Below, in pieces: positions 2,408 through 40,642 of a DNA stretch of 64,000 nt (within the stretch, counting starts at the first letter, position 1; each line of letters begins with the position of its first letter). Where the stretch lies: positions 129,148 through 193,147 of the forward strand of contig MFGJ01000008.1 in the NCBI GenBank assembly GCA_001778235.1, in the 5' to 3' direction. The notes below the pieces were generated by a model. That model was not told the DNA's origin. It searched no databases and saw nothing but the letters and a program-made list of their open reading frames with translations. The position numbers and the translations under genes were made by a program. The stretch comes from Candidatus Falkowbacteria bacterium RIFOXYC2_FULL_36_12 (GTDB taxonomy: Bacteria; Patescibacteriota; Patescibacteriia; UBA11705).

Positions 2408-3601
2408 CTATTTTATTTTTACAAAATGCCTCTTACCCTTTTGGACAACATCACCGCTTTTAACTTCAAACTCAACCGAATTTATAATTTCATCATTTAT
2501 TTTAACTGCTTTTTGCTCTACCATTCTCTTTGCTTCAGATTTTGAAATTACAAGGCCTGTCTCAATCAAAACATCTACAATATTAAAATTTGAAACTGTT
2601 TTTTCCTCAATTTCATCTGGCCGTTCCTTCTTCTGAAACATTTGGACAAAATTTTCTTCAGCCTTATCAGCCCTATCTTCATCAAAATAAAACTCAACAA
2701 TTTCCTTGGCTAACTCAACTTTCAAATCTCTTGGATTTTCACCTTGTTTCAATCTTTCTTCAAATAATTTTAATTTAACCGATTCAACCATTGTACAAAG
2801 TTCAAACCCCGGAATAATCATGCCATCTGTCCAGCTCATTACCTTGCCAAACATATCATCAGGACTATCAGCCAAAGTAATCATGTTTCCTTCAGATTTT
2901 CCCATTTTTATTCCTGATGGATCTGTCAATAATTTATTAGTCAAAACAAATTTTTCCTTCATTCCAAGCGATTTCATCAAATCCCGACCAGCAAGCATAT
3001 TAAAAGTCTGATCATTACCACCGACTTCACCATCAACATCCATTGCAACTGAATCATAACCTTGCATCAGCGGATACAAAAATTCATGTAAACTAATCGG
3101 TTTACCCTCTTTCATTCTTTTCTGGTACATATCCCTCTCAAGAAACTGCTGGACCGTAAAATTTGAAGCCAAATCAATCACCTGCCGAAAATCAAGTTTA
3201 TCTAACCATTTATGATTAAACTTTATTTCAACTTTATTCTTACCAGTGAAATCAAGTATTTTTTCAGCTTGTTTTTTATAATTTTTAGCATTTATCAATA
3301 CTTGTTCTCGAGTCAAAGGCTTTCTAGTTGCAGATTTGTCAGTCGGGTCACCAATCATTGCAGTAAAACTACCAATTAAAATTATAACCTGATGCCCAAG
3401 CTGTTGAAACTCGCGAAGCTTCATAAAATTTATCGCGTGTCCCAAATGCAAATCAGTTCCGGTCGGGTCAATACCTAAATATAGAGTTAATCTTTGCCCA
3501 GACTTTAATCTTTTCTCTAAAAATTCTCTGCTCGGATAAATATTCTGCACGCCTCGAGTTAATAACTTTTCTATTTTCTGGGAATCTGTATCAATTTTCA
3601 T
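2408..3601 (-). CDS. tyrS: tyrosyl-tRNA synthetase
   Basis: HLGH (HIGH) and KMGKS (KMSKS) motifs with a C-terminal S4-like domain. The ATG at 3601 was verified. Confidence 0.9.
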   Translation of the reverse strand: MKIDTDSQKIEKLLTRGVQNIYPSREFLEKRLKSGQRLTLYLGIDPTGTDLHLGHAINFMKLREFQQLGHQVIILIGSFTAMIGDPTDKSATRKPLTREQVLINAKNYKKQAEKILDFTGKNKVEIKFNHKWLDKLDFRQVIDLASNFTVQQFLERDMYQKRMKEGKPISLHEFLYPLMQGYDSVAMDVDGEVGGNDQTFNMLAGRDLMKSLGMKEKFVLTNKLLTDPSGIKMGKSEGNMITLADSPDDMFGKVMSWTDGMIIPGFELCTMVESVKLKLFEERLKQGENPRDLKVELAKEIVEFYFDEDRADKAEENFVQMFQKKERPDEIEEKTVSNFNIVDVLIETGLVISKSEAKRMVEQKAVKINDEIINSVEFEVKSGDVVQKGKRHFVKIK

Positions 3602-3612
3602 ATAATTTATTT

Positions 3613-6600
3613 TTATTCTAATTCTTCTAATTGATTTTGTAATTTTTCTATCTTTTCTTTTGCTTCATTAAATTTCCTTTGTTCTTCAGCCACCACCAGT
3701 TCAGGAGCATTTTTCATAAATTCTTCATTTCCCAATTTTTTCTCCAAACCTAATACATATTTTTTACTGTTATCAATCTCACTCTTCAGTCGTTCAATTT
3801 CCTTATCAATATCAAGCAATTCAGCCAAAGGCAAATAAATTTCCACATCTGAAACAATCGCGGTCGCAGATTTCTCTGGTTTTTCAATTACCAGTTCAAT
3901 TTTTTCTAAACGGGCTAAGCTCATGATTATGCCAAATTGACTTTGCAATCTCTCTCCAGCTTTTATTTGAATCTTTATTTTTTTCGCCGGATCAATTTTG
4001 TATTCAGAACGCATATTTCTTATTTTCCCAATCACAACCTGCAGTTGTTCAAACTCTTTCACTCCCTCTTTATCAATCATTTTCTTATCAAATTGTGGAA
4101 ATTTACTTACCATCAACTCTTGTTCTGAACCTAAATTTTGCCAAATTGCTTCAGTCACAAAAGGCATGAACGGATGCCACATTTTGAGCAAATTTTTCAA
4201 TATATGAATCAAAACCACATCTTTGTCATTTTCAACCTTAGCAATTTCCAAATACCAATCAGCCAAATCATTCCAAGTAAATTCTTTTAATAAATCTCCC
4301 GCACCTGAAAAATTATACTCATCAAGCATTTTTGTTACATCCTGAATCAAAGTATTAAATTTTGACAATATCCATCTATCACTCAAACTAACATTTTTAT
4401 TCAATTCAAATTTTGAGTCTCTTTTTTCAGGATTCAATGTCATCAAAATATACCTAGAAATATTCCAAAGTTTATTAACAAAATTTCTATATCCTTCAAT
4501 TTTTTCATCATAAAGTCTAATATCATTACCAGCCGTATTACCAATAAGCAAACTCAATCTTACCGCATCAAATCCATACTTATCTCCAGCCTGAAGCGGA
4601 TCAATTGCTGTTTCAGGTTTTGATTTTGACATTTTATCTCCATTTTTATCTCGAACCAATCCGTGCAAATACACATTTTCAAATGGAACCTCTCCCTTTA
4701 CATAGGTTGTCATCAAAATCATTCTAGCCACCCAGAAAAATAAAATATCATAACCAGTCTCCATCACAGTTGTTGGATGAAATCTTTTCATGTCTTTACC
4801 CTCAAATTTTTTCCCATTCCAATCTTCGGGCAACAAAGTTGAAAAAGTCCAAAGACCTGAACTGAACCAAGTATCTAGAGTATCTGAATCCTGATAAATA
4901 TTTTCCAATCCATTCGGAGACTCTACATTGGTTAATTTTATTTTTATATTTTCACCTGTTTCAGGATAACCAAGTTTAAAAATTTCTTCATCAGTTAAAT
5001 TTTTGTGCATCCCTTGAGCCATTCTAAGCACATCTCCATGGCTAACAACCAACACCTTTTTCCCTGAATATTTTTTCAATATATCTGTTAAACAACTGAA
5101 AACTCGCTTTTTTTGGTGCAGAAAAGATTCAATTCCCTTTGGGCTATCATTTCTCCAAGCTTCAAAATCAGCTTCGCGAAAATGGACAAAATCTCCTACC
5201 GACTTGCCTTCAAACTCACCAACACCCACTTCCCTCAATCTTTCATCAAATATTACTTTTAATTTTAATTCTTTATTTAATATTCCAACTGTTTCTTTTG
5301 TCCGACTAAAATCAGAAGCATAAATAATATCAAACTTTTCATTTTTTAATTTTTCAGCCATTATTTTAATTTGCTTCTTACCTGTTCCAGTCAAACCATT
5401 TTCCAGATTATCAATATCTGAACTCAAAACTCCTTTTTCATTTGTCTTAGCTTCTCCATGTCTCTGCAAAACAATTTCAGTCGGCTTGGCATCAGAAATA
5501 ATCGGCTGTTTTAAATCCTTGTCATACCAAACAGGAATTTGGTGTCCAAACCAAATCTGACGGGAAATACACCAATTATGTAAATTTTCCATCCAATGAA
5601 AATAAACCTTTTCAAATCTTTCTGGAATTATATTAATTTCTTTGTCTTTTACTACCTTGATTGCCACTTGTTTCAAGCTTGCTCCATTACTGAAATATTT
5701 ATTACCTTTTTTTGTGATTTTTTTATTGACATCAATAAACCATTGATCAGAAATTAATGGCTCAATCACTGTTTTACATCTATAACAGACAGATATTTTA
5801 TTATCATAATCATCATCAATCTTCTCAATCAACCCCATAGCCTTCATATCCTTTACTATTGATTCTCTCGCTTCCAAACTTGTCATCCCAACATATTTCC
5901 CACAATTAGCCATCATCCGACCATCTTCATCAATAATTTGCTTGATAGGTAATTCATTTCGCTCGGCAATCTCATAATCAACCAAACTATGCGCTGGAGT
6001 CACTTTTACCGCTCCTGTTCCGAATTCTGGGTCTACAGCCTCATCTGCAACTACAGTTATCTCAAACTCACCCAAAACACCTGGGATCATATACTTTTTA
6101 CCAATCATCGATTTATACCTTTTATCCTTTGGATTTACCGCTACGGCTGTATCACCAAGTTTTGTTTCTGGTCTAGTTGTTGCCAAAACAAACGGACCAT
6201 ATTTAAGCCAATACAACTTACTTTTAGTTTCTTTATATTCTATTTCATCATCTGCCAGAGTCGTATGACACCGCGGACACCAATTTACAATCCTATTGCC
6301 CCTGATTACAAGACCATCATCATACATCATTTTGAAAACTTTTCGCACCGCCATACTACGAACATCATCTAGGGTATATGTTTCTCTACTCCAATCTACA
6401 CTTGAACCCATTTTTCTAGTCTGATTGGTAATTGTTTTCTTGCTCTGACTTACAAAATCCTCAACTTTATTCAAAAAAGCTTCTCTACCTAAATCATGTC
6501 TGGTTTTTCCTTCGTCATTGAATATTTTCTTCTCCACAACATTCTGTGTTGCGATCGCCGCATGATCAAAGCCTGGCAACCAAAGAGTATCAAAACCCTG

Positions 6601-6816
6601 CATTCTTTTGTATCGAATCATCAAATCTTCAATCGCCAACATTGCCGCATGTCCTAAATGCAAAGAACCTGTCACATTTGGTGGTGGCAGTACAATTGAA
6701 AAAGCCTTACCTTTATTATTAATTGTATCAGGATTAAAAAATTTCTTTTCTTCCCAATTATTGTAAATTTTTTCCTCAAAATCTTTTGGGCAATAAGCTT
6801 TTGGCAATTCTTTCAT
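3613..6816 (-). CDS. valS: valyl-tRNA synthetase with an internal histidine-phosphatase (PGAM-like) domain insertion
   Basis: PPPNVTGSLHLGHA, WCISRQIWFGHQIP, DTWFSSGLW and KMSKS motifs are present. The protein is 1067 aa with about 195 extra residues between the PVWY and DTLDTWFSS blocks. Confidence 0.9.
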   Translation of the reverse strand: MKELPKAYCPKDFEEKIYNNWEEKKFFNPDTINNKGKAFSIVLPPPNVTGSLHLGHAAMLAIEDLMIRYKRMQGFDTLWLPGFDHAAIATQNVVEKKIFNDEGKTRHDLGREAFLNKVEDFVSQSKKTITNQTRKMGSSVDWSRETYTLDDVRSMAVRKVFKMMYDDGLVIRGNRIVNWCPRCHTTLADDEIEYKETKSKLYWLKYGPFVLATTRPETKLGDTAVAVNPKDKRYKSMIGKKYMIPGVLGEFEITVVADEAVDPEFGTGAVKVTPAHSLVDYEIAERNELPIKQIIDEDGRMMANCGKYVGMTSLEARESIVKDMKAMGLIEKIDDDYDNKISVCYRCKTVIEPLISDQWFIDVNKKITKKGNKYFSNGASLKQVAIKVVKDKEINIIPERFEKVYFHWMENLHNWCISRQIWFGHQIPVWYDKDLKQPIISDAKPTEIVLQRHGEAKTNEKGVLSSDIDNLENGLTGTGKKQIKIMAEKLKNEKFDIIYASDFSRTKETVGILNKELKLKVIFDERLREVGVGEFEGKSVGDFVHFREADFEAWRNDSPKGIESFLHQKKRVFSCLTDILKKYSGKKVLVVSHGDVLRMAQGMHKNLTDEEIFKLGYPETGENIKIKLTNVESPNGLENIYQDSDTLDTWFSSGLWTFSTLLPEDWNGKKFEGKDMKRFHPTTVMETGYDILFFWVARMILMTTYVKGEVPFENVYLHGLVRDKNGDKMSKSKPETAIDPLQAGDKYGFDAVRLSLLIGNTAGNDIRLYDEKIEGYRNFVNKLWNISRYILMTLNPEKRDSKFELNKNVSLSDRWILSKFNTLIQDVTKMLDEYNFSGAGDLLKEFTWNDLADWYLEIAKVENDKDVVLIHILKNLLKMWHPFMPFVTEAIWQNLGSEQELMVSKFPQFDKKMIDKEGVKEFEQLQVVIGKIRNMRSEYKIDPAKKIKIQIKAGERLQSQFGIIMSLARLEKIELVIEKPEKSATAIVSDVEIYLPLAELLDIDKEIERLKSEIDNSKKYVLGLEKKLGNEEFMKNAPELVVAEEQRKFNEAKEKIEKLQNQLEELE

Positions 6817-6987
6817 AAATATAAATCAATTATTACGAACAAAAATTCGCAAAATTTATTTTCTAGATTTAATTGTATTTACTCTTAAATTCTAACATTA
6901 TTTTATCCTAAATTCAACAAAAACTCTCAATAAATTAGCCAACATTGACTTTTATCCCCAAAAATTGCCAGAACACTAAAATTTCTA

Positions 6988-7016
6988 TTGACACCACCTT
7001 GAAAATCCCTTATGAT
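6988..7016 (+). promoter_or_regulatory. sigma70-like promoter (TTGACA-17 bp-TATGAT)
   Basis: Exact -35 hexamer at 6988..6993 and -10 at 7011..7016, about 70 nt upstream of the 7089 CDS. Confidence 0.5.
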
Positions 7017-7088
7017 TTCTAATTACTAGCACAAAAACAACCAACCAAGTATAGTCTCCAATTTTTAATATCTAATCAATCAACCTTC

Positions 7089-8210
7089 ATGTCACTAACC
7101 GAAACACAACAAATTTACGAAGCTCTAAAAAATAGCCAAAACGCACTAATCACTTTCTCACCCAATGCCAATGGTGATGCCGTCGCTTCTAGTTTGGCCT
7201 TATCTCTTTTATTAAAAAAAATGAACAAAAATCATGAGATAGTCAGTAATAATTTTTCAGCCTATGATTTATACCATTTTTTACCAAATATAACTTCTAT
7301 AAAAAGTACTCTGACGGGTTTACGAAAATTTTTGTTAAAATTAAATTTACAATCAAATGAGTTAAACAAAATGAATCACTTTATTGAAGACTCATTTCTC
7401 CATATTGAACTCGAACCAAAATCTGGCATATTTTCAGAATCAGATCTTCATTTATCTCATTCAAAGTATAAATATGATTTGATTATTACCATCAGTACCC
7501 CTGATCTCGAATCCCTTGAACAAATATTTGAACACCATACTGATTTCTTCTACCAAACACCAATATTAAACATTGACCATTCTACTGACAATGAATATTT
7601 TGGTCACTACAATTATGTCAATGTAACCGCTTCATCAGCTTCAGAAATATTATATGATTTAATTAATAATATTGATAAAAATTTAGTTGATGAACCTATT
7701 GCTACCTGCCTTTTGACAGGAATGATCCTAAAAACTCAAAGTTTCCGAACCACCAAAGTTACTCCAAAAAGCTTAAACATTGCAGGAGATCTAATAGCTA
7801 CCGGAGCAGATAGGGCAAATATCATTCGTAATCTCTACCAAACAAAATCTCTAAATACTCTAAAACTTTGGGGCAAACTGCTTCAAAAACTTGAACTTAA
7901 TCAATCAAAACAAATTGCTATTTCTCATCTTACGCTTGATGATTTCAAACAAACAAAAAGCACTCCCGAACAAATCCCAGGAGTGATTGAAGAATTGATT
8001 ACCAATATTCCTACTATCAAGTTAACAGTTATTTTTTATGAAACACAAAACTCTCTTTCAGTCCTTATAAAATCTGAAAATGATCTAAATCTCTTGGAAA
8101 AACTTTATTTATTCAACCCAAAAGGTAATAAAAACATGGTAAAAATCAAACTTGGACCAGCAGATAAAATCAAACTACTCGAGAAACTATACACTATAAT
8201 AACCAAGTAA
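7089..8210 (+). CDS. DHH/DHHA1-family (NrnA-like) phosphoesterase homologue with substituted catalytic motifs
   Basis: The NANGDAVASS motif resembles DHH motif I (GDAxGS). IDHST sits where DHH is expected, with His replaced by Ser. Confidence 0.45.
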   Translation: MSLTETQQIYEALKNSQNALITFSPNANGDAVASSLALSLLLKKMNKNHEIVSNNFSAYDLYHFLPNITSIKSTLTGLRKFLLKLNLQSNELNKMNHFIEDSFLHIELEPKSGIFSESDLHLSHSKYKYDLIITISTPDLESLEQIFEHHTDFFYQTPILNIDHSTDNEYFGHYNYVNVTASSASEILYDLINNIDKNLVDEPIATCLLTGMILKTQSFRTTKVTPKSLNIAGDLIATGADRANIIRNLYQTKSLNTLKLWGKLLQKLELNQSKQIAISHLTLDDFKQTKSTPEQIPGVIEELITNIPTIKLTVIFYETQNSLSVLIKSENDLNLLEKLYLFNPKGNKNMVKIKLGPADKIKLLEKLYTIITK

Positions 8211-8348
8211 ATACTACTTCACAAACCCATTTTTTTATGCTATTATAGCTTTAGTTTCCTAATTCAAGGTTACTTGAGACATAGAATAACTCAATCACAC
8301 ATTCACACTTTACTTGCATTTCTCGCTTTGTTCTTATCTCGCTTTTTC

Positions 8349-31685: not shown

Positions 31686-33323
31686 CTATTGAGGACCTTG
31701 AATCAATTTTCCTGTATATGCATTTACATAGAATATCCCACCTATTTTTGATGACCGCACTTTCAATACAGCAGAATTCATATATCTCTCAACGCTCAAC
31801 TTCCCATATTTTTTTGGAAAAGTAAAATACTTATAAACCGAATGATCACTATACCTTACTTTTATATTTCCATTAGTCAGTCCAACCGCCGAGAGGAGAT
31901 ATCTATTTGCAAAATTTACATTGTATGGATCAATTGTTGAAAGAAAAGGATGTAACCCATTATTCTGAATAGTATTTATCTCATCAATTTCTCCATCTCC
32001 ATCATTATCTCTTCTATCGCCTTTGAATTCCACACCAACTGAATACACCCCATCATCAAAATCATAATTATTTACTACATAACCTACTGGTACATTCCCA
32101 CAAACACTAATTGAAACAACTTTGCTTCCAAGTCCATCTCCATCATTATCTTGATAATAACTGCTACCACCAGCCCCGACCAAAGTTGTTGTATCATCAC
32201 AATCTAATTCAATTTCAACTCCATCGTTATCAAAATCATTGTCATTCAAATCATTGTTATTAGCCACATAACCACTTAGCATTGAACAACTTTGAATCAC
32301 ATCACCATATCCCAAGCCATCACCGTCTTGGTCAATGTAATAATTATTTGAAGCAAACAATTCTGGATTTTGTGGGGCACAATCATTTAAATCTAAAACT
32401 CCATCTCCATCAAAATCACGCCGAACAACTGGGAAATTAAAATGCCGTGTAATTGTCGAGGTACTATCATGAGCAATCAATATTTCAGCCATATTTGTCA
32501 TTGGAACTGATTTAATTACAACACCCTCTCTGGCATCACCAGGTACATCTGTATAAGTATTAATTACTGTCCGTCCATCTGGAGTTAACTCAAACAAATA
32601 ATTATATCCATCATCATAAAGCACAAACAATGTTCCGGTATCTTTACTAAAAAACAAGTCAGAAACATTTCTATTCGGCAATGCAGAATTCAAATTCAAA
32701 TACCCAAGAGAAGTCACTTCCCCGTTCACAGCCAAATTAACATCAAAAGCATAAATCAAACCATCGTCTACAGTTGTATCATTGTTAATATCAACTGGTC
32801 TCTGAACACCAGCATAAAAAACTCCACCAGAGGCTCTATCTCCATATGGATGAAAACCATTTGGGACAAAAGCTAATCCCTCTAATCCAGAATTAGCAGG
32901 ACCAGTAAGCCAAGTTGTCAAATCCCATTTTTTTGGTATTTGAGGACTATTAACCGGTGAAGTAATATCAAATTCATAAATTGCATCTGGATTTTCAACA
33001 CCAACATATATTTTATTACTATTGGGGTCAACAATTGTAAGAGCTTCAAAATCTCCGCCCATCTTCCAAGTCAGCTGATTACTTCCATCTGCATTCATCA
33101 TTGTAATTCTGTTTCCATCACTGGTCAGATCACTTACTGAAAATAATTTTTTAGTTACTTCATTCCAAGCTAAACCACTTGGTTCATAAGGACTTGGCAA
33201 ATTAATTGTATCCGCCGTTGTTATACCAGTCGCTGGCCATGTAGCACCGAAAACAACTGTCGGCATTACCAACATAAAAAAAACAAAAGTCGCTAAACTA
33301 AATTTAATTTTCATAATATACAA
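31686..33323 (-). CDS. secreted protein: N-terminal beta-propeller-like region and C-terminal Asp-rich DxDxDG calcium-binding repeats
   Basis: Signal-peptide-like N-terminus (hydrophobic...VVFGA). Five DxDGDG/DNDGDG loops (DFDGDGVLDLND, DQDGDGLG, DNDGDGEIDE...). Confidence 0.6.
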   Translation of the reverse strand: MYIMKIKFSLATFVFFMLVMPTVVFGATWPATGITTADTINLPSPYEPSGLAWNEVTKKLFSVSDLTSDGNRITMMNADGSNQLTWKMGGDFEALTIVDPNSNKIYVGVENPDAIYEFDITSPVNSPQIPKKWDLTTWLTGPANSGLEGLAFVPNGFHPYGDRASGGVFYAGVQRPVDINNDTTVDDGLIYAFDVNLAVNGEVTSLGYLNLNSALPNRNVSDLFFSKDTGTLFVLYDDGYNYLFELTPDGRTVINTYTDVPGDAREGVVIKSVPMTNMAEILIAHDSTSTITRHFNFPVVRRDFDGDGVLDLNDCAPQNPELFASNNYYIDQDGDGLGYGDVIQSCSMLSGYVANNNDLNDNDFDNDGVEIELDCDDTTTLVGAGGSSYYQDNDGDGLGSKVVSISVCGNVPVGYVVNNYDFDDGVYSVGVEFKGDRRDNDGDGEIDEINTIQNNGLHPFLSTIDPYNVNFANRYLLSAVGLTNGNIKVRYSDHSVYKYFTFPKKYGKLSVERYMNSAVLKVRSSKIGGIFYVNAYTGKLIQGPQ

Positions 33324-35362: not shown

Positions 35363-37915
35363 TTAAATAATTTTTGCGTTTGGATAATTTTTACTTAAAT
35401 CTTCTCTTTGTTTTATTGACAAATTCTTACAATAAATTTTCCCCTGGAAAGCAACCGGCAGTTTCAAACCTTCAGCCGTCTTTAATCCTGACAAATCAAT
35501 ATCACCGCCAATGTTCTCGGGCAGTTTCAAACCATCAGCTGTCGTTAATCCTGACAACACAAGATCCCCACCAATGCTCTCGGGCAATTTCAATCCTTCA
35601 GCTGTCGTTAATCCTGACAACACAAAATCCCCACCAATGCTCTCGGGCAGTTTCAAGCCTTCGACTGTCATTAATCCGTTCAAAAAAAGATCACTGCCAA
35701 TGCTCTCGGGCAATTTCAATCCTTCAGCTGTCGTTAATCCTGACAAATAAAGCTTACCGCCAATACTCTCGGGCAGTTTCAAGCCTTCAGCTGTCGTTAA
35801 TCCTGACAACTCAAGATCCCTGCCAATGTTCTCGGGCAGTTTCAAGCCTTTAGCCGTCGTTAATCCTGACAAATCAAGATCCCTGCCAATGTTCTCGGGC
35901 AGATTCAAGCCTTTAGCCGTCGTTAATTTCATCAAAGACAAAGAGCCACCAATAATCTCGGGCAATTTCAATCCTTCAGCTGTTGTTAAATCCTGCAACT
36001 CAAGATTACCACCAATACACTCTGGCATTATCAATCCTTTAGCCGTCGTTAATCCTGATAAATTAAGAAGTCCGCCAATGCTCTCGGGTAGTTTCAAACC
36101 ATCAGCCGTCTTTAATCCACGCAATGCAAGAGAGCCACCAATACTCTTGGGCAGTTCCAAGCCTTTAGCGGTTGTTAATCCTGACAAATAAAGATTACCG
36201 CCAATACTCTCGGGTAGTTTCAAGCCTTCAGCTGTCTCTAATCCTGACAAATAAAGCTTACCGCCAATACTCTCGGGCAGATTCAAGCCTTCAGCCGTCG
36301 TTAATCCTGACAAATCAAGATTACCACCAATAATCTTGGGCAATTTCAATCCTTCAGCCGTCGTTAATCCTGACAAATCAATATCCCTGCCAATGTTCTC
36401 GGGCAATTTCAATCCTTCAGCTGTCGTTAATCCTGACAAAGAAAGATTACCATAATGAAATTTAATTTCACCACTCACAGCTTCCTCATTTGTCAAGCTT
36501 ATCTTATCCTTGGGAAAACCTGTCACCACCACCAAATCAGCCCTTATATCCTTTCGGTTACTCTTGATTTCTTCCAAACGCGGATCAGCCTCATAACCAA
36601 ATCCTTTAATTTTACCGTCAAACTCATACAAAAATCTCAAATCACTCTTTGCCAGTTCTTGCCCTTGTCTATTTCTCTCCCAAACATCTGTCAATTGCTC
36701 CATATCTGCAGTCTTCTGCTTGTACTCATCTCCTTCCTTGCCAAATTCATCCATTTTCTTTTCCACCACTGGACCAATATATGGATCCAGATTCTGATCA
36801 GTCGCTATACCTCGGACTTCAGCGATTTTTTCTTTCCCCTCCATGCGTATCGCAATCCTAGGAATCACAGCTTCACCATCTTCATTATAGGAATAATAGA
36901 CATAAAAATCTCCTCCTGCCAACTGTTTTCTGGCCGTCTCAATATCAGCTGTGCACCATTCTAGTGGATAACCCTCAAGGCTTTTTACCAACTCATCCGG
37001 TTTTGATTTCTGCGGGAAAATTTTCCACTCTCCTTTAATTTCCTCCAGTCCTTCAGTCGCGTATTCAGGAATTTCCAGTAAAAATTGTGCGTAAAGTTTG
37101 GCAAAGTTTTCCTTCGATAATAATTTAATAAATTCATTTTCCTTTAATTTCTTACTGTCATTTTTTATTTGCAATTTCAACAATTCTTCCTCTCTTTGTT
37201 CTTTGGGCTTTTGCTTTTCTCTCGCCACCCTTTCTTTTTCTTCCAAATAACCAATCATCACTCCGATTGTTTTTGCCAAGGCCCGAGAGTTCAAGAGTGG
37301 AAAGGTGTTTGTAGTTGAACCAGTTCTTCGCTGAAACTGCGCCTTGACGCTTCCATTTATGTCTTCTTTTTTCACCAACTTGCCCATTTTCAGCATTGAA
37401 GTAAACGCCCAATACTTGGCCCACATCGGATACTGGGCATCGTCTGAAGTCAGGTAATTGAACCAAGTTTCTAAACTTTTCGCTTGGTTGTTTCTCACCA
37501 CCACCAACGACTGCTCCCTCATTTCTACCGGAAAAATATAGTTGACAATCTGCTCATCTGACTCATCTCTGATTACTCTTTTTTCCACCCCATTTTGTTC
37601 CAAATCTCCACCATATCCCTGACGAATCATTATTTCCGCCTGGTTATTCCAATATCCTTGAGGTATGTCATCAAGTGTTAGTGTCACATATCTCCGGTAA
37701 TAATATTGTTTTAGTCGTTCCATCACTTTCGGATCATCTCTGTGCCCCAAGTGGGTTCGCTCCAGCACCTTCATCCAATCCGACAACTTTTCCGCTGGCT
37801 TTTGCGTAGTCTGCTCACCACGCCGTTTTTTCCTATCCTGTTCATGCATCGCCGGATCAGACAAATGAAGCTCTGTATCTTTTTGATGTAAAAATTTTTC
37901 TCCAAAATTTGTCAT
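35363..37915 (-). CDS. large repeat protein: about 480-aa unknown N-terminal domain plus about 22 tandem 20-aa Leu-rich (LRR-like) repeats
   Basis: C-terminal 20-aa repeats, consensus LDLSGLTTAEGLKLPESIGG; no signal peptide seen. The start overlaps the trmH stop (ATGA). Confidence 0.6.
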   Translation of the reverse strand: MTNFGEKFLHQKDTELHLSDPAMHEQDRKKRRGEQTTQKPAEKLSDWMKVLERTHLGHRDDPKVMERLKQYYYRRYVTLTLDDIPQGYWNNQAEIMIRQGYGGDLEQNGVEKRVIRDESDEQIVNYIFPVEMREQSLVVVRNNQAKSLETWFNYLTSDDAQYPMWAKYWAFTSMLKMGKLVKKEDINGSVKAQFQRRTGSTTNTFPLLNSRALAKTIGVMIGYLEEKERVAREKQKPKEQREEELLKLQIKNDSKKLKENEFIKLLSKENFAKLYAQFLLEIPEYATEGLEEIKGEWKIFPQKSKPDELVKSLEGYPLEWCTADIETARKQLAGGDFYVYYSYNEDGEAVIPRIAIRMEGKEKIAEVRGIATDQNLDPYIGPVVEKKMDEFGKEGDEYKQKTADMEQLTDVWERNRQGQELAKSDLRFLYEFDGKIKGFGYEADPRLEEIKSNRKDIRADLVVVTGFPKDKISLTNEEAVSGEIKFHYGNLSLSGLTTAEGLKLPENIGRDIDLSGLTTAEGLKLPKIIGGNLDLSGLTTAEGLNLPESIGGKLYLSGLETAEGLKLPESIGGNLYLSGLTTAKGLELPKSIGGSLALRGLKTADGLKLPESIGGLLNLSGLTTAKGLIMPECIGGNLELQDLTTAEGLKLPEIIGGSLSLMKLTTAKGLNLPENIGRDLDLSGLTTAKGLKLPENIGRDLELSGLTTAEGLKLPESIGGKLYLSGLTTAEGLKLPESIGSDLFLNGLMTVEGLKLPESIGGDFVLSGLTTAEGLKLPESIGGDLVLSGLTTADGLKLPENIGGDIDLSGLKTAEGLKLPVAFQGKIYCKNLSIKQREDLSKNYPNAKII
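35400..36450. repeat. Near-identical 60-bp tandem repeats (coding, within the LRR-like gene)
   Basis: Repeating ...ctctcgggcagtttcaagccttcagctgtcgttaatcctgacaa... units, GC-richer than the surroundings. Confidence 0.8.
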
Positions 37916-38514
37916 ATTTTTAAAACTTTTAATAATGCCTCTTGTTCTTTTTTGTCTTTTAAAAATTTCTTGCCTTCCAGTAGTCTCTGTCTTGATATTT
38001 CATAAATAAATATCGCCGTTGTCACCGATACATTCAAACTCTGCACCATACCTCTCATTGGAATTATCAATTTCTTATCCAACATTGAAATTGCTTTTTC
38101 CGACAAACCCGCATGTTCATTGCCAATCAGCAATGCAATCTTATCATATTTTGTAAAAGCTTGATCATAAATTGACTCACAATCATCAGCCAGCACAGTC
38201 CCCATAATTACATATTTTTCTTTTTTCAATTCATTCAAACATTTTTCAGTTGAATCAAATTTCTGAAAATTCAACCACTTATTAGCTGATGCTGAACTAA
38301 CTTTACCGATTTTACGAGGATTATATGATTCTTGTTTTTCAAAAATAAGATAAACATCCTGAATGCCAAAAGCTTCAGCTGTCCGAAAAATTGCCCCCGC
38401 ATTGTGCGGATCATGAATATCTTCGAGCACCAGCACAATATTTTTCTGTCTTTTTCTTACAACATTTATTAATTTTTTCAATCTTTCTTTGGTCAACATA
38501 ACTATTTCTTCCAT
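37912..38514 (-). CDS. trmH: SpoU/TrmH-family RNA 2'-O-methyltransferase
   Basis: SPOUT motifs HDPHNAGAIFRTAEAFG, GNEHAGL and SLNVSV. Confidence 0.75.
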   Translation of the reverse strand: MEEIVMLTKERLKKLINVVRKRQKNIVLVLEDIHDPHNAGAIFRTAEAFGIQDVYLIFEKQESYNPRKIGKVSSASANKWLNFQKFDSTEKCLNELKKEKYVIMGTVLADDCESIYDQAFTKYDKIALLIGNEHAGLSEKAISMLDKKLIIPMRGMVQSLNVSVTTAIFIYEISRQRLLEGKKFLKDKKEQEALLKVLKI

Positions 38515-38905: not shown

Positions 38906-39304
38906 CTACAAATATTTCTCCTCAAAATCCTTCTCATCATTATACTTAGCAAATTTCTCATGATGAGGCGGGACTTTGAATCCTTGTTTCTTGGCATGCT
39001 GAATTCCGCACCAATAATATTCTGTCTCCGCCGCAATCTCTGACCAATATCTCACCACCCCATTACCATAACCGCAATAAACACAATATATCTTTTCAAA
39101 AATATTCAAATATTTCAATTTATGACGATCAATCAAAATATAATTGCTTCTCTTAACATATTTTATGCCACATAAAGGAAAACAAATTCTATGGTAAATC
39201 TCCATCCAAATATCCATGATTACCATCGGAATTAAAACAGAAGTAATTATCGGCATTACAAAAAAATGCTTTAGCATCCCCCATTTGGTTTTTATATATT
39301 TCAC
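38906..39304 (-). CDS. hypothetical membrane-anchored Cys-rich protein
   Basis: N-terminal TM helix and a CxxC...CxYC pattern. No family recognised. Confidence 0.4.
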   Translation of the reverse strand: MKYIKTKWGMLKHFFVMPIITSVLIPMVIMDIWMEIYHRICFPLCGIKYVKRSNYILIDRHKLKYLNIFEKIYCVYCGYGNGVVRYWSEIAAETEYYWCGIQHAKKQGFKVPPHHEKFAKYNDEKDFEEKYL

Positions 39305-40264: not shown

Positions 40265-40642
40265 ATGAACTACCCGATCAAACCACATCACATTTTTATT
40301 GGTTTTGAAGATTCAGAACTACATTTCCGAAATGCAGAAGAATTAGAAACTATTGGTAGTCGTGAACCAGCAATCTTTGTTGCACTATTAAAAATGGCTC
40401 AATCTCGTGATAACTGGTCTCCTTTCACCTGCGAAGATTTTCAACCATTTATTGATAATAACCGTTATGACACCCTCGCTAAAATCCGCATAGAACTTGA
40501 CTGGTTTACTTCTGATGATCTCGCCTGGCTTGGTAGAACCGAAGATGGGAAATACAGATTCACCCACGAATTCGTTTCAACCTGTTTCAAAATCAGCCCT
40601 GCACCAGATTGTATTGTCCAAAGCGAACAACAGGAGCAATAA
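40265..40642 (+). CDS. hypothetical protein, paralogue A (MNYPI...YRFTHEFVSTCF)
   Basis: Shares MxYPI, FTHxFVxTCF and the overall layout with the next ORF. Confidence 0.5.
   Translation: MNYPIKPHHIFIGFEDSELHFRNAEELETIGSREPAIFVALLKMAQSRDNWSPFTCEDFQPFIDNNRYDTLAKIRIELDWFTSDDLAWLGRTEDGKYRFTHEFVSTCFKISPAPDCIVQSEQQEQ

Follow-up and report, generated by a model that had tools for sequence, protein, structure and literature searches.

Patescibacteria (the Candidate Phyla Radiation, CPR) carry more diversity-generating retroelements (DGRs) than almost any other group. The variable proteins diversified by these elements in the CPR, treated as a set by Wu et al. (2018) and as clade-2 targets by Roux et al. 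(2021), combine a constant N-terminal part with a variable C-terminal binder; they are described as lacking transmembrane (TM) segments or other recognizable domains, and whether they are membrane-bound has been left open (Roux et al., 2021, PMC8144416). In some of them, according to Wu et al. (2018, PMC5758913), a "PcfJ-like" motif lies upstream of the variable region (VR). A second group of described proteins that is relevant here comprises the bacterial short leucine-rich repeat (LRR) proteins, such as Leptospira LIC10831 and the YopM, IpaH, and SlrP proteins with their LRRs of 20–22 residues. Here we analyze a gene that touches on both groups. It lies at positions 35363..37915, on the minus strand, of a 64,000-nucleotide stretch of DNA (hereafter, the window) from Candidatus Falkowbacteria bacterium RIFOXYC2_FULL_36_12 (contig MFGJ01000008.1, positions 129,148 to 193,147), and it encodes a protein of 850 amino acids (aa) that an initial annotation, made from the letters alone, had described as carrying near-identical Leu-rich repeats. 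We find that this protein belongs to a widespread patescibacterial family in which a constant N-terminal domain is followed either by a DGR-diversified domain or by a repeat solenoid, and we propose, with a probability of roughly 0.6, that the solenoid is an interchangeable target-recognition module on a constant, probably cytoplasmic, domain.

A constant domain joined to a repeat array

The open reading frame (ORF) at 35363..37915, with 850 codons plus a stop codon in the ORF list, is genuine and intact and encodes a protein of two modules; to this extent the initial annotation was correct. The first 490 residues (36446..37915, minus strand) constitute a conserved alpha/beta domain, hereafter the N-domain, supported by the family profile and by AlphaFold2 modeling; residues 491–826 (35438..36445, minus strand) constitute an array of 16 units of 21 residues each, delimited by Tandem Repeats Finder (TRF) and by the unit register; and residues 827–850, IYCKNLSIKQREDLSKNYPNAKII, together with the stop codon (35363..35437, minus strand), constitute a C-terminal cap that is apparent both in the model and in the tails of family members. 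The protein is 100% identical to "hypothetical protein A2223_02755" of Candidatus Falkowbacteria bacterium RIFOXYA2_FULL_35_8, and its start, MTNFGEKFLHQKD, fits the family consensus MxxxGEQFLHQKD.

Tandem 63-bp repeats are a classic risk in short-read metagenome assemblies, and the initial annotation had itself raised the possibility that the array is an assembly artifact, which, like decay of the gene, would mean that the protein does not exist as written. We consider such an expansion, collapse, or decay very improbable. The units differ by approximately 22%, and the longest exact repeat internal to the array spans only 50 nt; the same gene, 2,553 nt long and differing by one substitution (L785F), is present amid the same neighbors in an assembly record deposited separately (ENA ERZ4902888); the 850-codon frame is open, with the conserved cap in frame; and relatives possess arrays of 1–22 units in the same register. 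An assembly artifact was rejected on the strength of the 50-nt limit on exact repeats and the matching gene in ERZ4902888.

With respect to the N-domain, searches with the N-terminal 490 residues retrieved 1,804 proteins at E ≤ 1e-3 among 8,000 candidates scored, with identities typically of 45–64% over the whole domain; every match that bears a name is a patescibacterial hypothetical protein, from Uhr-, Magasanik-, Lloyd-, Berkel-, or Falkowbacteria or from the Parcubacteria group. Among 1.84 billion cluster representatives searched with the profile, at least 2,421 clusters (at 50% identity) matched at E ≤ 1e-3, 1,284 of them at E < 1e-30, and two strict peptide patterns alone locate the N-domain gene in 141 GTDB species genomes. 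The family hidden Markov model (HMM) matches the 850-aa protein with an E-value of 4.5e-215, and the protein shares the invariant residues of this unnamed patescibacterial family of ~480-aa N-domains (exemplified by A2223_02755, UX09_C0013G0005, and A2725_03025); these residues number in the dozens and include W320-C321, R353, Q374, D377, D444, and R446, and a THxGH motif at residues 54–58 is nearly invariant as well. Between the Falkow-, Uhr-, Magasanik-, Lloyd-, Berkel-, Kuenen-, and Davies- groups and further candidate groups, sequence identity of the N-domain is ~50%, and the conservation of the domain appears, by sequence comparison, to be on a par with that of core genes. This family, confined mostly or only to Patescibacteria, is among the more widespread uncharacterized families of that group. 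Some family loci (L017, L030, L035, L045, L093, L095, and others, from binchicken and MGBC metagenome-assembled genomes) are titled "uncultured Gammaproteobacteria," "Bacilli," or "Mycoplasma sp."; these titles may be placeholders or wrong labels, or the N-domain family may reach other small-genome lineages. In one such record, titled "uncultured Mycoplasma sp." (L095), a divergent member with 34% identity is followed downstream (4862–6077) by eight copies of a 113-nt segment at ~120-nt spacing, whose identity decays from 98% to 69% and whose mismatches have no adenine bias; these copies could encode a separate array with 40-aa units or could continue the gene in a shifted frame.

AlphaFold2 modeling of the N-domain from a 109-sequence alignment predicts an alpha/beta fold with a predicted local distance difference test (pLDDT) score of 91.5 and a predicted TM-score (pTM) of 0.74. 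Comparison of this model with the PDB using Foldseek revealed no match at E < 1e-3, the best being a designed protein (E 0.15). The earlier statement that the N-terminal ~480 residues contain no recognizable motif is borne out: we detected no match above threshold in Pfam, NCBIfam, PADLOC, or PHROGs for the 850-aa protein and 120 relatives, no PADLOC family at E ≤ 1 for the 850-aa protein, and no match in PDB sequence searches with the single protein, with the N-domain profile, or with the profile of the ~190-aa C-terminal domain of relatives that is described below. A phage origin was considered and rejected, as tblastn of the N-domain against 50,697 phage records yielded no match. In four members, among them P0008 (residues 176–205), the domain carries a zinc-ribbon-like insert (weak DZR/Zn_ribbon matches) at the site of a beta-hairpin that corresponds to residues 177–196 of the 850-aa protein, where the latter has no cysteines.

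The second module is the array. TRF reports one strong array at 35457–36451, with a period of 63 bp, 15.8 copies, 80% matches, and a score of 1088, which is far beyond chance. When the protein is laid out in lines of 21 residues, 16 full units spanning residues 491–826 (336 aa) are seen, followed by a 24-aa tail; the unit consensus is L-x-L-S-G-L-T-T-A-E-G-L-K-L-P-E-S-I-G-G-x, so that the array is rich in Leu and Gly. The description of the array therefore has to be revised: the unit is 21 aa/63 bp rather than 20 aa/60 bp, the consensus first proposed being one residue short; there are 16 full units in 336 aa plus the cap rather than some 22 units over ~440 aa; and the units are not near-identical, given that their mean pairwise identity is 78% for DNA (range 57–95%) and 71% for protein. 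Synonymous divergence between units is ~0.4, which indicates that the array is not a very recent expansion. Moreover, units are more alike within than between proteins (identity of 0.71 vs. 0.53 for the 850-aa protein, and of 0.59 vs. 0.48 family-wide), which implies concerted evolution or lineage-specific expansion; of the two histories initially offered, recent expansion is not supported and concerted evolution is.

In the AlphaFold2 model of the full-length protein (pLDDT 89.8), the array is regular, with pLDDT values of 90–96, and is predicted to form a helix-free solenoid of 16 turns. According to DSSP, each unit of the model contributes two 2-residue strands (positions 17–18 and 1–2) and ~14 non-helical residues, with no helix. 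The cap comprises a strand (826–828) and a helix (834–843), and its motif, …K..LR..YP…I, is kept at the end of repeat-type members (P0003, P0074, L051, and the A3 consensus). Within the 850-aa protein, the most variable unit positions are 2, 21, 17, and 4; in an alignment of 727 units from 77 proteins, positional entropy is highest at positions 21, 4, 17, and 2, and L1, L3, L6, L12, and L14 are nearly fixed. The dN/dS ratio between units is 3.3 at positions 21 and 2 taken together vs. 0.29 at the remaining 17 positions, a crude estimate from few codons. These patterns are compatible with a solenoid in which Leu at unit positions 1, 3, 6, 12, and 14 and Ile/Val at position 18 would make up the core, whereas the x positions of the xLxLx strand (21, 2, and 4) and position 17 would make up a variable binding surface. 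Such an array would change through unit duplication and gene conversion, with diversifying selection acting on positions 21, 2, 4, and 17.

An exchangeable C-terminus and its retroelement-diversified counterparts

We surveyed the C-termini of the 237 family members that extend at least 40 aa beyond the N-domain. Of these, 118 are repeat-like, 105 of them with the 21-aa period, and another 78 carry a common non-repeat domain of ~190 aa, with the pattern …NTKAYIGPL…EHIYTSFPEGKI…DLGF..GATT.QIY.RA.ELGLELCP.EVGP.LRL…FVFRLRK. Other C-termini consist of TPRs (P0170), DUF4256 (P0094), or unrelated long tails, and in one member (P0004) the C-terminus is a more canonical 20-aa LRR that is recognized by Pfam (PF23598). 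The 21-aa unit occurs in 1–22 copies across the family, so that the 16 copies of the 850-aa protein are near the top of the range and not unique; a protein search with the array as the query listed matches of up to 588 aa, the 850-aa protein itself not among them, and is thus unsuited to ranking the long family members. Given that the C-terminal position is interchangeable across the family, we regard the second module as an exchangeable ligand-recognition end. The 21-aa repeat also occurs outside the N-domain family (P0327, P0331, and P0337, 539 aa; P0341; and the P0346, P0351, and P0354 groups), where its partners are a PD-(D/E)XK nuclease (P0327; PF12705, 42 bits), DUF6985 (P0341), small N-terminal domains of unknown kind, or single TM anchors. 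With this variety of partners, the repeat is a portable module of CPR proteomes.

The alternative, non-repeat C-terminus connects the family to DGRs. In the locus of P0008 (L004), a copy of the final 133 nt of the gene lies ~320 nt downstream, with 88% identity, and 16 of the 17 mismatches fall at adenines of the downstream copy, which is the signature of a DGR; bAvd and a reverse transcriptase (RT) are among the adjoining called genes. In the fetched loci, we scanned every complete family gene at its 3′ end and found a template repeat (TR), with mismatches nearly all at TR adenines, in 16 of the 46 complete loci with a non-repeat C-terminus. These TRs are located 300–450 nt downstream and are 80–95% identical to the gene end (adenine mismatches account for 24/24 in L080, 20/20 in L054, 17/17 in L082, and 15/15 in L043), and ORFs for an RT with the YxDD motif and for Avd-like proteins adjoin the TR-bearing loci. 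The VR of these relatives is the C-terminal 130–140 nt of the gene, such that the last ~45 codons of the ~190-aa domain are rewritten. No A-biased TR was found at any repeat-type locus examined. Taken together, the TR and RT data across loci identify the family as a major CPR DGR target family, of which the 850-aa protein represents a repeat-bearing, DGR-independent form. In the published accounts of CPR DGR targets that we consulted, we found no description of the N-domain family or of its repeat alternative.

With adjacent TR, Avd, and RT present at about a third of the family loci that have a non-repeat C-terminus, one might ask whether the 850-aa gene is itself a DGR target like its relatives. 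This is hardly credible: the 64-kb window contains no match to the ORFs, RT included, that adjoin TRs in seven DGR loci used as queries, and no second family copy; the repeat-type loci examined have no A-biased TR; and the variation between units tracks structural positions, not adenines.

Complete DGR cassettes lie beside members of the ~190-aa type in L004 (7970–8561), L022, L024, L032, L043, L054, L064, L075, L080, L081, L082, L087, and L092, with a common layout in which the VR is at the 3′ end of the gene, the TR 300–450 nt downstream, bAvd on the opposite strand, and the RT carries YxDD. In L036, two tandem family paralogs (3542–5584 and 5671–7824), whose last 246 nt are 100% identical, are accompanied by one TR (8150–8285) with 26 mismatches, 25 of them at adenines; the arrangement suggests either a single DGR with two targets or a VR region that was duplicated or gene-converted very recently.

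Resemblance to known families and genomic context

The initial characterization of the array as Leu-rich and LRR-like stands, but assignment to the canonical LRRs is not supported. With Pfam LRR_14, its best curated LRR match, the 850-aa protein reaches 12.9 bits where the cut-off is 40 (E 0.046), and a match to SlrP (E 0.045) is likewise below threshold; among 50 repeat-type relatives, 8 match LRR_14 at E ≤ 1 (best E-value, 3.9e-4), and all these matches are sub-threshold. In a Foldseek search of the PDB with the solenoid, the top match was the Leptospira LRR protein LIC10831 (4u06), with E 0.012, probability 0.38, and a TM-score of 0.22, and there was no match at E < 1e-3. In the unit, I18-G-G-x-L1-x-L3-S-G-L6-T-T-A, the first spacing is one residue longer than that of LxxLxLxx(N/C)xL, Leu occupies the Asn/Cys position, and the array contains no Asn ladder. 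Because the unit possesses "LPxxIG" and "LxL" and is without the LxxLxLxxN/CxL spacing and the Asn ladder, we call the array an LRR-like, non-canonical solenoid; since no structural neighbor is significant, its description as an LRR-like binding scaffold is founded on the motif logic, the variability pattern, and the substitution of real LRRs in relatives. Matches to Glutaredoxin2_C, HNH_5, and Thr_synth_N in repeat regions were dismissed as repeat-driven artifacts. The literature on LRRs in Patescibacteria yielded nothing relevant.

The only stretch of the N-domain that resembles any named family, and does so weakly, consists of residues 300–374 (36794..37018, minus strand; …SLEGYPLEWCTA…GGDFYVYYS…IPRIAIRMEG..IAEVRGIA), which align, in a weak hhalign alignment, to the core of PcfJ (EGxxLxHCVxSY…VTVEI…VQxRG). 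A PcfJ profile, built from PcfJ of pCF10 and ten diverse phage homologs, aligns in hhalign to the N-domain family profile with P = 0.022 and a probability of 2%; Foldseek of the N-domain against BFVD places a "PcfJ like protein" at the top (E 0.022, probability 0.75, TM-score 0.17) and another at rank 20. No solved PcfJ structure surfaced in the PDB Foldseek search with the N-domain; the Pfam PcfJ model (PF14284) gave 0 matches at E ≤ 1 in the 850-aa protein or 120 relatives; and the locally built PcfJ HMM, run with hmmsearch, found nothing significant, its best E-value being 0.25 among 753 sequences. We therefore rejected a PcfJ-like assignment, the same region always aligning and never significantly, and keep it as a weak lead; the "PcfJ-like" targets of Wu et al. 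(2018) may or may not belong to the same family as the N-domain. Even a firm link would not explain the mechanism, because the function of PcfJ itself is not known. In pCF10, the PcfJ-domain gene (L006: 20874–22984) lies directly ahead of a gene with the annotation "Cas9 inhibitor AcrIIA9 family protein," and 449 phage records, most of them from Herelleviridae, contain PcfJ-like genes; this context hints at an anti-defense or early-gene role for PcfJ.

Taken at face value, these resemblances would make the 850-aa protein a member of a known family and nothing new, i.e., either a canonical LRR protein of the YopM/IpaH/SlrP or Leptospira type, or a PcfJ-like mobile-element protein. Such a view can cite the weak LRR_14 and SlrP matches, including LRR_14 in the repeat-type members, the LRR protein at the top of the PDB fold matches, the PcfJ-like protein at the top of the BFVD matches, the hhalign P-value at the PcfJ core, and the "PcfJ-like" motif of Wu et al. 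(2018). We nevertheless judge it improbable, given that the LRR scores are far under curated cut-offs, that helical or convex segments are absent from the model and the unit departs from the LxxLxLxxN/CxL spacing, and that no fold match reaches E < 1e-3. On the side of PcfJ, neither the Pfam model (0 of 120 members even at E ≤ 1) nor the locally built HMM produced anything significant, the His of the PcfJ "HC" motif is a Trp in the N-domain family, and the search of the phage records with the N-domain was negative.

The gene neighborhood offers little by way of functional association. The 850-aa gene is part of a same-strand run that comprises genes for a DUF7670 membrane protein, a SpoU methylase, the 850-aa protein, NUDIX, MazG, and VanW. 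The upstream SpoU/TrmH-type methylase gene (37912..38514; Pfam SpoU_methylase, 9.4e-37) shares 4 nt with the 850-aa gene, its stop codon overlapping the start codon of the latter in an ATGA sequence (37912..37915, minus strand), and the same arrangement is found in ERZ4902888. This stop/start overlap suggests that the two genes are co-transcribed, so that the co-transcription with trmH initially claimed is plausible; a conserved or functional link, in contrast, was rejected, a SpoU methylase being the neighbor in only 4 of ~75 related loci. Elsewhere, the neighbors are different: P0041 is located between the SpoIID and DHBP synthase genes, P0008 after RuvA, and P0114 between the RecJ and S21 genes, and clustering of the flanking ORFs of ~75 loci uncovered no recurrent partner except DGR parts.

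In composition, the gene stands apart from its surroundings, as noted in the initial annotation, and does so at third codon positions as well: its GC content is 0.42–0.46 vs. 0.30–0.37 for the neighbors, and its third-position GC content (GC3) is 0.40–0.42 vs. 0.17–0.36 in 22 other ORFs of the window. This excess in GC3, +0.14, is above that of all 46 comparator loci of the same family in other genomes (mean −0.015, maximum +0.12); the explanation that a GC excess is a property of the family was accordingly rejected, and the horizontal origin suggested at the outset agrees with this atypical composition. The best homologs (60–64% identity) include Uhrbacteria proteins, one of them from a bin labeled 45% GC, and other Falkowbacteria copies are 46–56% identical. 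The gene was probably acquired laterally from a higher-GC member of the Patescibacteria.

Several other ORFs of the window were recorded in passing. Three genes downstream, a 545-aa ORF (31686–33323, minus strand) has a clear signal-peptide-like N-terminus, a match to SdiA-regulated/phytase-like beta-propellers, and several Asp/Gly-rich DxDGDG-type motifs, which suggest calcium binding; a role at the surface or in host interaction is more plausible for its product than for the 850-aa protein. Two ORFs of 125–132 aa (38906–39304, minus strand, and 40265–40642, plus strand) have no Pfam match, and the former has a hydrophobic N-terminus and is Cys-rich (CVYCGYGN…WCGIQH).

Predicted location and function in comparison with known systems

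The maximum 19-residue Kyte–Doolittle average of the 850-aa protein is 1.04, and its first 40 residues average −1.74. In agreement with the early remark that a signal peptide is not obvious, this hydrophilic N-terminus is accompanied by no signal peptide, TM segment, or lipobox, as judged from hydropathy. N-termini across the family begin directly with the N-domain (median offset of 4 aa). Since the family is without signal peptides and TM segments, action in the cytoplasm appears most likely. We propose that module 1 (residues 1 to ~490) would be a constant domain with a constant activity or docking function and that module 2 (residues 491–826 and the cap) would be a variable ligand-recognition module mounted on it. 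In the cytoplasm, recognition of a variable protein, foreign or partner, could then be coupled to the activity or docking of module 1; the ligand might be of phage or host origin.

An alternative, put forward in the initial annotation, is that the protein is an exported adhesin or effector; in this case a non-Sec route would carry it out of the cell, the solenoid would bind the surface or a protein of the host, and the N-domain would serve as an anchor or as an export or docking part. Patescibacteria are, after all, episymbionts, and the 21-aa repeat occurs behind signal-peptide-like N-termini in P0297 and P0311. Moreover, LRR-like arrays and DGR-diversified domains classically serve in cell–cell, phage–cell, and host binding (Roux et al., 2021). 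We nevertheless hold export to be rather unlikely, considering that the 850-aa protein has no signal peptide, TM segment, or lipobox, that the N-termini of the family are of the same kind, and that CPR DGR targets without TM segments or recognizable domains may be genuinely non-membrane-bound (Roux et al., 2021, PMC8144416). Conservation of the N-domain at ~50% identity across candidate phyla is housekeeping-like and would be unusual for exposed proteins; the gene is located amid housekeeping genes, with no secretion genes nearby and with neighbors that are not conserved. Finally, the repeat is fused elsewhere to a PD-(D/E)XK nuclease, and, although the TM anchors that precede 21-aa repeats are predicted in either orientation, some of them, judged by their positive-inside flanks, leave the repeats on the cytoplasmic side.

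Several points weigh against the proposal of an intracellular recognition module. Most characterized DGR targets act at surfaces, and some 21-aa-repeat proteins, namely P0297 and P0311, have the signal-peptide-like N-termini already mentioned. The cytoplasmic location is deduced solely from the absence of signals; the solenoid model is without a significant structural neighbor, 4u06 at E 0.012 being the best; the dN/dS estimate is drawn from just 2 codons across 15 units; and lateral transfer is concluded from composition alone. These points are reflected in the probability of roughly 0.6 that we attach to the solenoid being an interchangeable target-recognition module on a constant, probably cytoplasmic, domain.

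Beyond this, and as a tentative idea that we consider doubtful rather than probable, the family could represent a Patescibacteria-wide, intracellular system in which a constant 480-aa domain of novel fold is combined with a programmable binder that different lineages diversify by two routes. One route would be adenine mutagenesis of a compact domain by DGRs; the other would act on a non-canonical 21-residue solenoid through expansion, gene conversion, and positive selection. The protein would then not be a surface adhesin but would act within the cell, for example as an adaptor or innate sensor that recognizes phage or host proteins. If true, this would also account for the CPR DGR targets that are without export signals. 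Whatever its standing, one large family of CPR DGR targets is now characterized by a highly conserved domain, whose fold is predicted with confidence, and by a C-terminus that is either DGR-diversified or a solenoid. The constant domain, the natural variants of the binder, and the question of cytoplasm vs. surface thus provide handles on what CPR DGRs diversify, and why. For the window alone, the implication is more modest, namely that it contains a real, probably laterally acquired, repeat-bearing member of the family.

Of the known systems, the DGR variable proteins of the CPR (Wu et al., 2018; Roux et al., 2021) include many relatives that contain the same N-domain and likewise join a constant N-terminal part to a variable C-terminal binder; the 850-aa protein differs from them in that it has no VR/TR, with no RT found in the window, and in that its binder is a repeat solenoid, not the ~190-aa domain. 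The PcfJ-like proteins (PF14284; conjugative plasmid pCF10 and Herelleviridae phages) share with the N-domain the elements EGxxLx[HW]C, a hydrophobic strand, P..[TA][IL][ER], and [IV].[QE][IV][RQ]G, in the same order; in contrast, the N-domain spans 480 aa vs. ~150 aa, Trp replaces the His of the "HC" motif, and the resemblance is without statistical support. With the bacterial short LRR proteins (LIC10831/4u06, and the 20–22-aa LRRs of YopM, IpaH, and SlrP), the array has in common the tandem Leu-rich units of 20–23 aa, "LPxxIG," the LxL strand, a predicted parallel solenoid, and variable residues flanking the strand leucines, and canonical LRRs take the place of the array in some family members (P0004). 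Unlike these proteins, the array is without the Asn/Cys ladder and has the spacing IGGxLxLxGLxxAxGLxLP, its model has two mini-strands and no helix per unit, and the 850-aa protein is without NEL or another effector domain.

By analogy only, the 850-aa protein also resembles the Avs/NLR-like STAND immunity proteins, with their C-terminal TPR, LRR, or WD40 sensors, in its constant N-terminal part, its variable C-terminal repeat, and its predicted cytoplasmic location, and the 21-aa repeat is elsewhere fused to a PD-(D/E)XK nuclease; it differs from them in the lack of an NTPase domain, of a PADLOC match, and of a defense-island context, and the N-domain is much more highly conserved than is usual for defense genes. 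As for the two routes of binder diversification suggested above, the likeness is one of concept, to the variable lymphocyte receptors of lampreys vs. antibodies. The sequence itself, deposited as "hypothetical," the CPR DGR targets as a class, and LRR-like binders as a kind are already known, whereas a widespread constant domain without structural relatives, its alternative DGR-diversified or solenoid binders, and the non-canonical 21-residue unit appear to be new.

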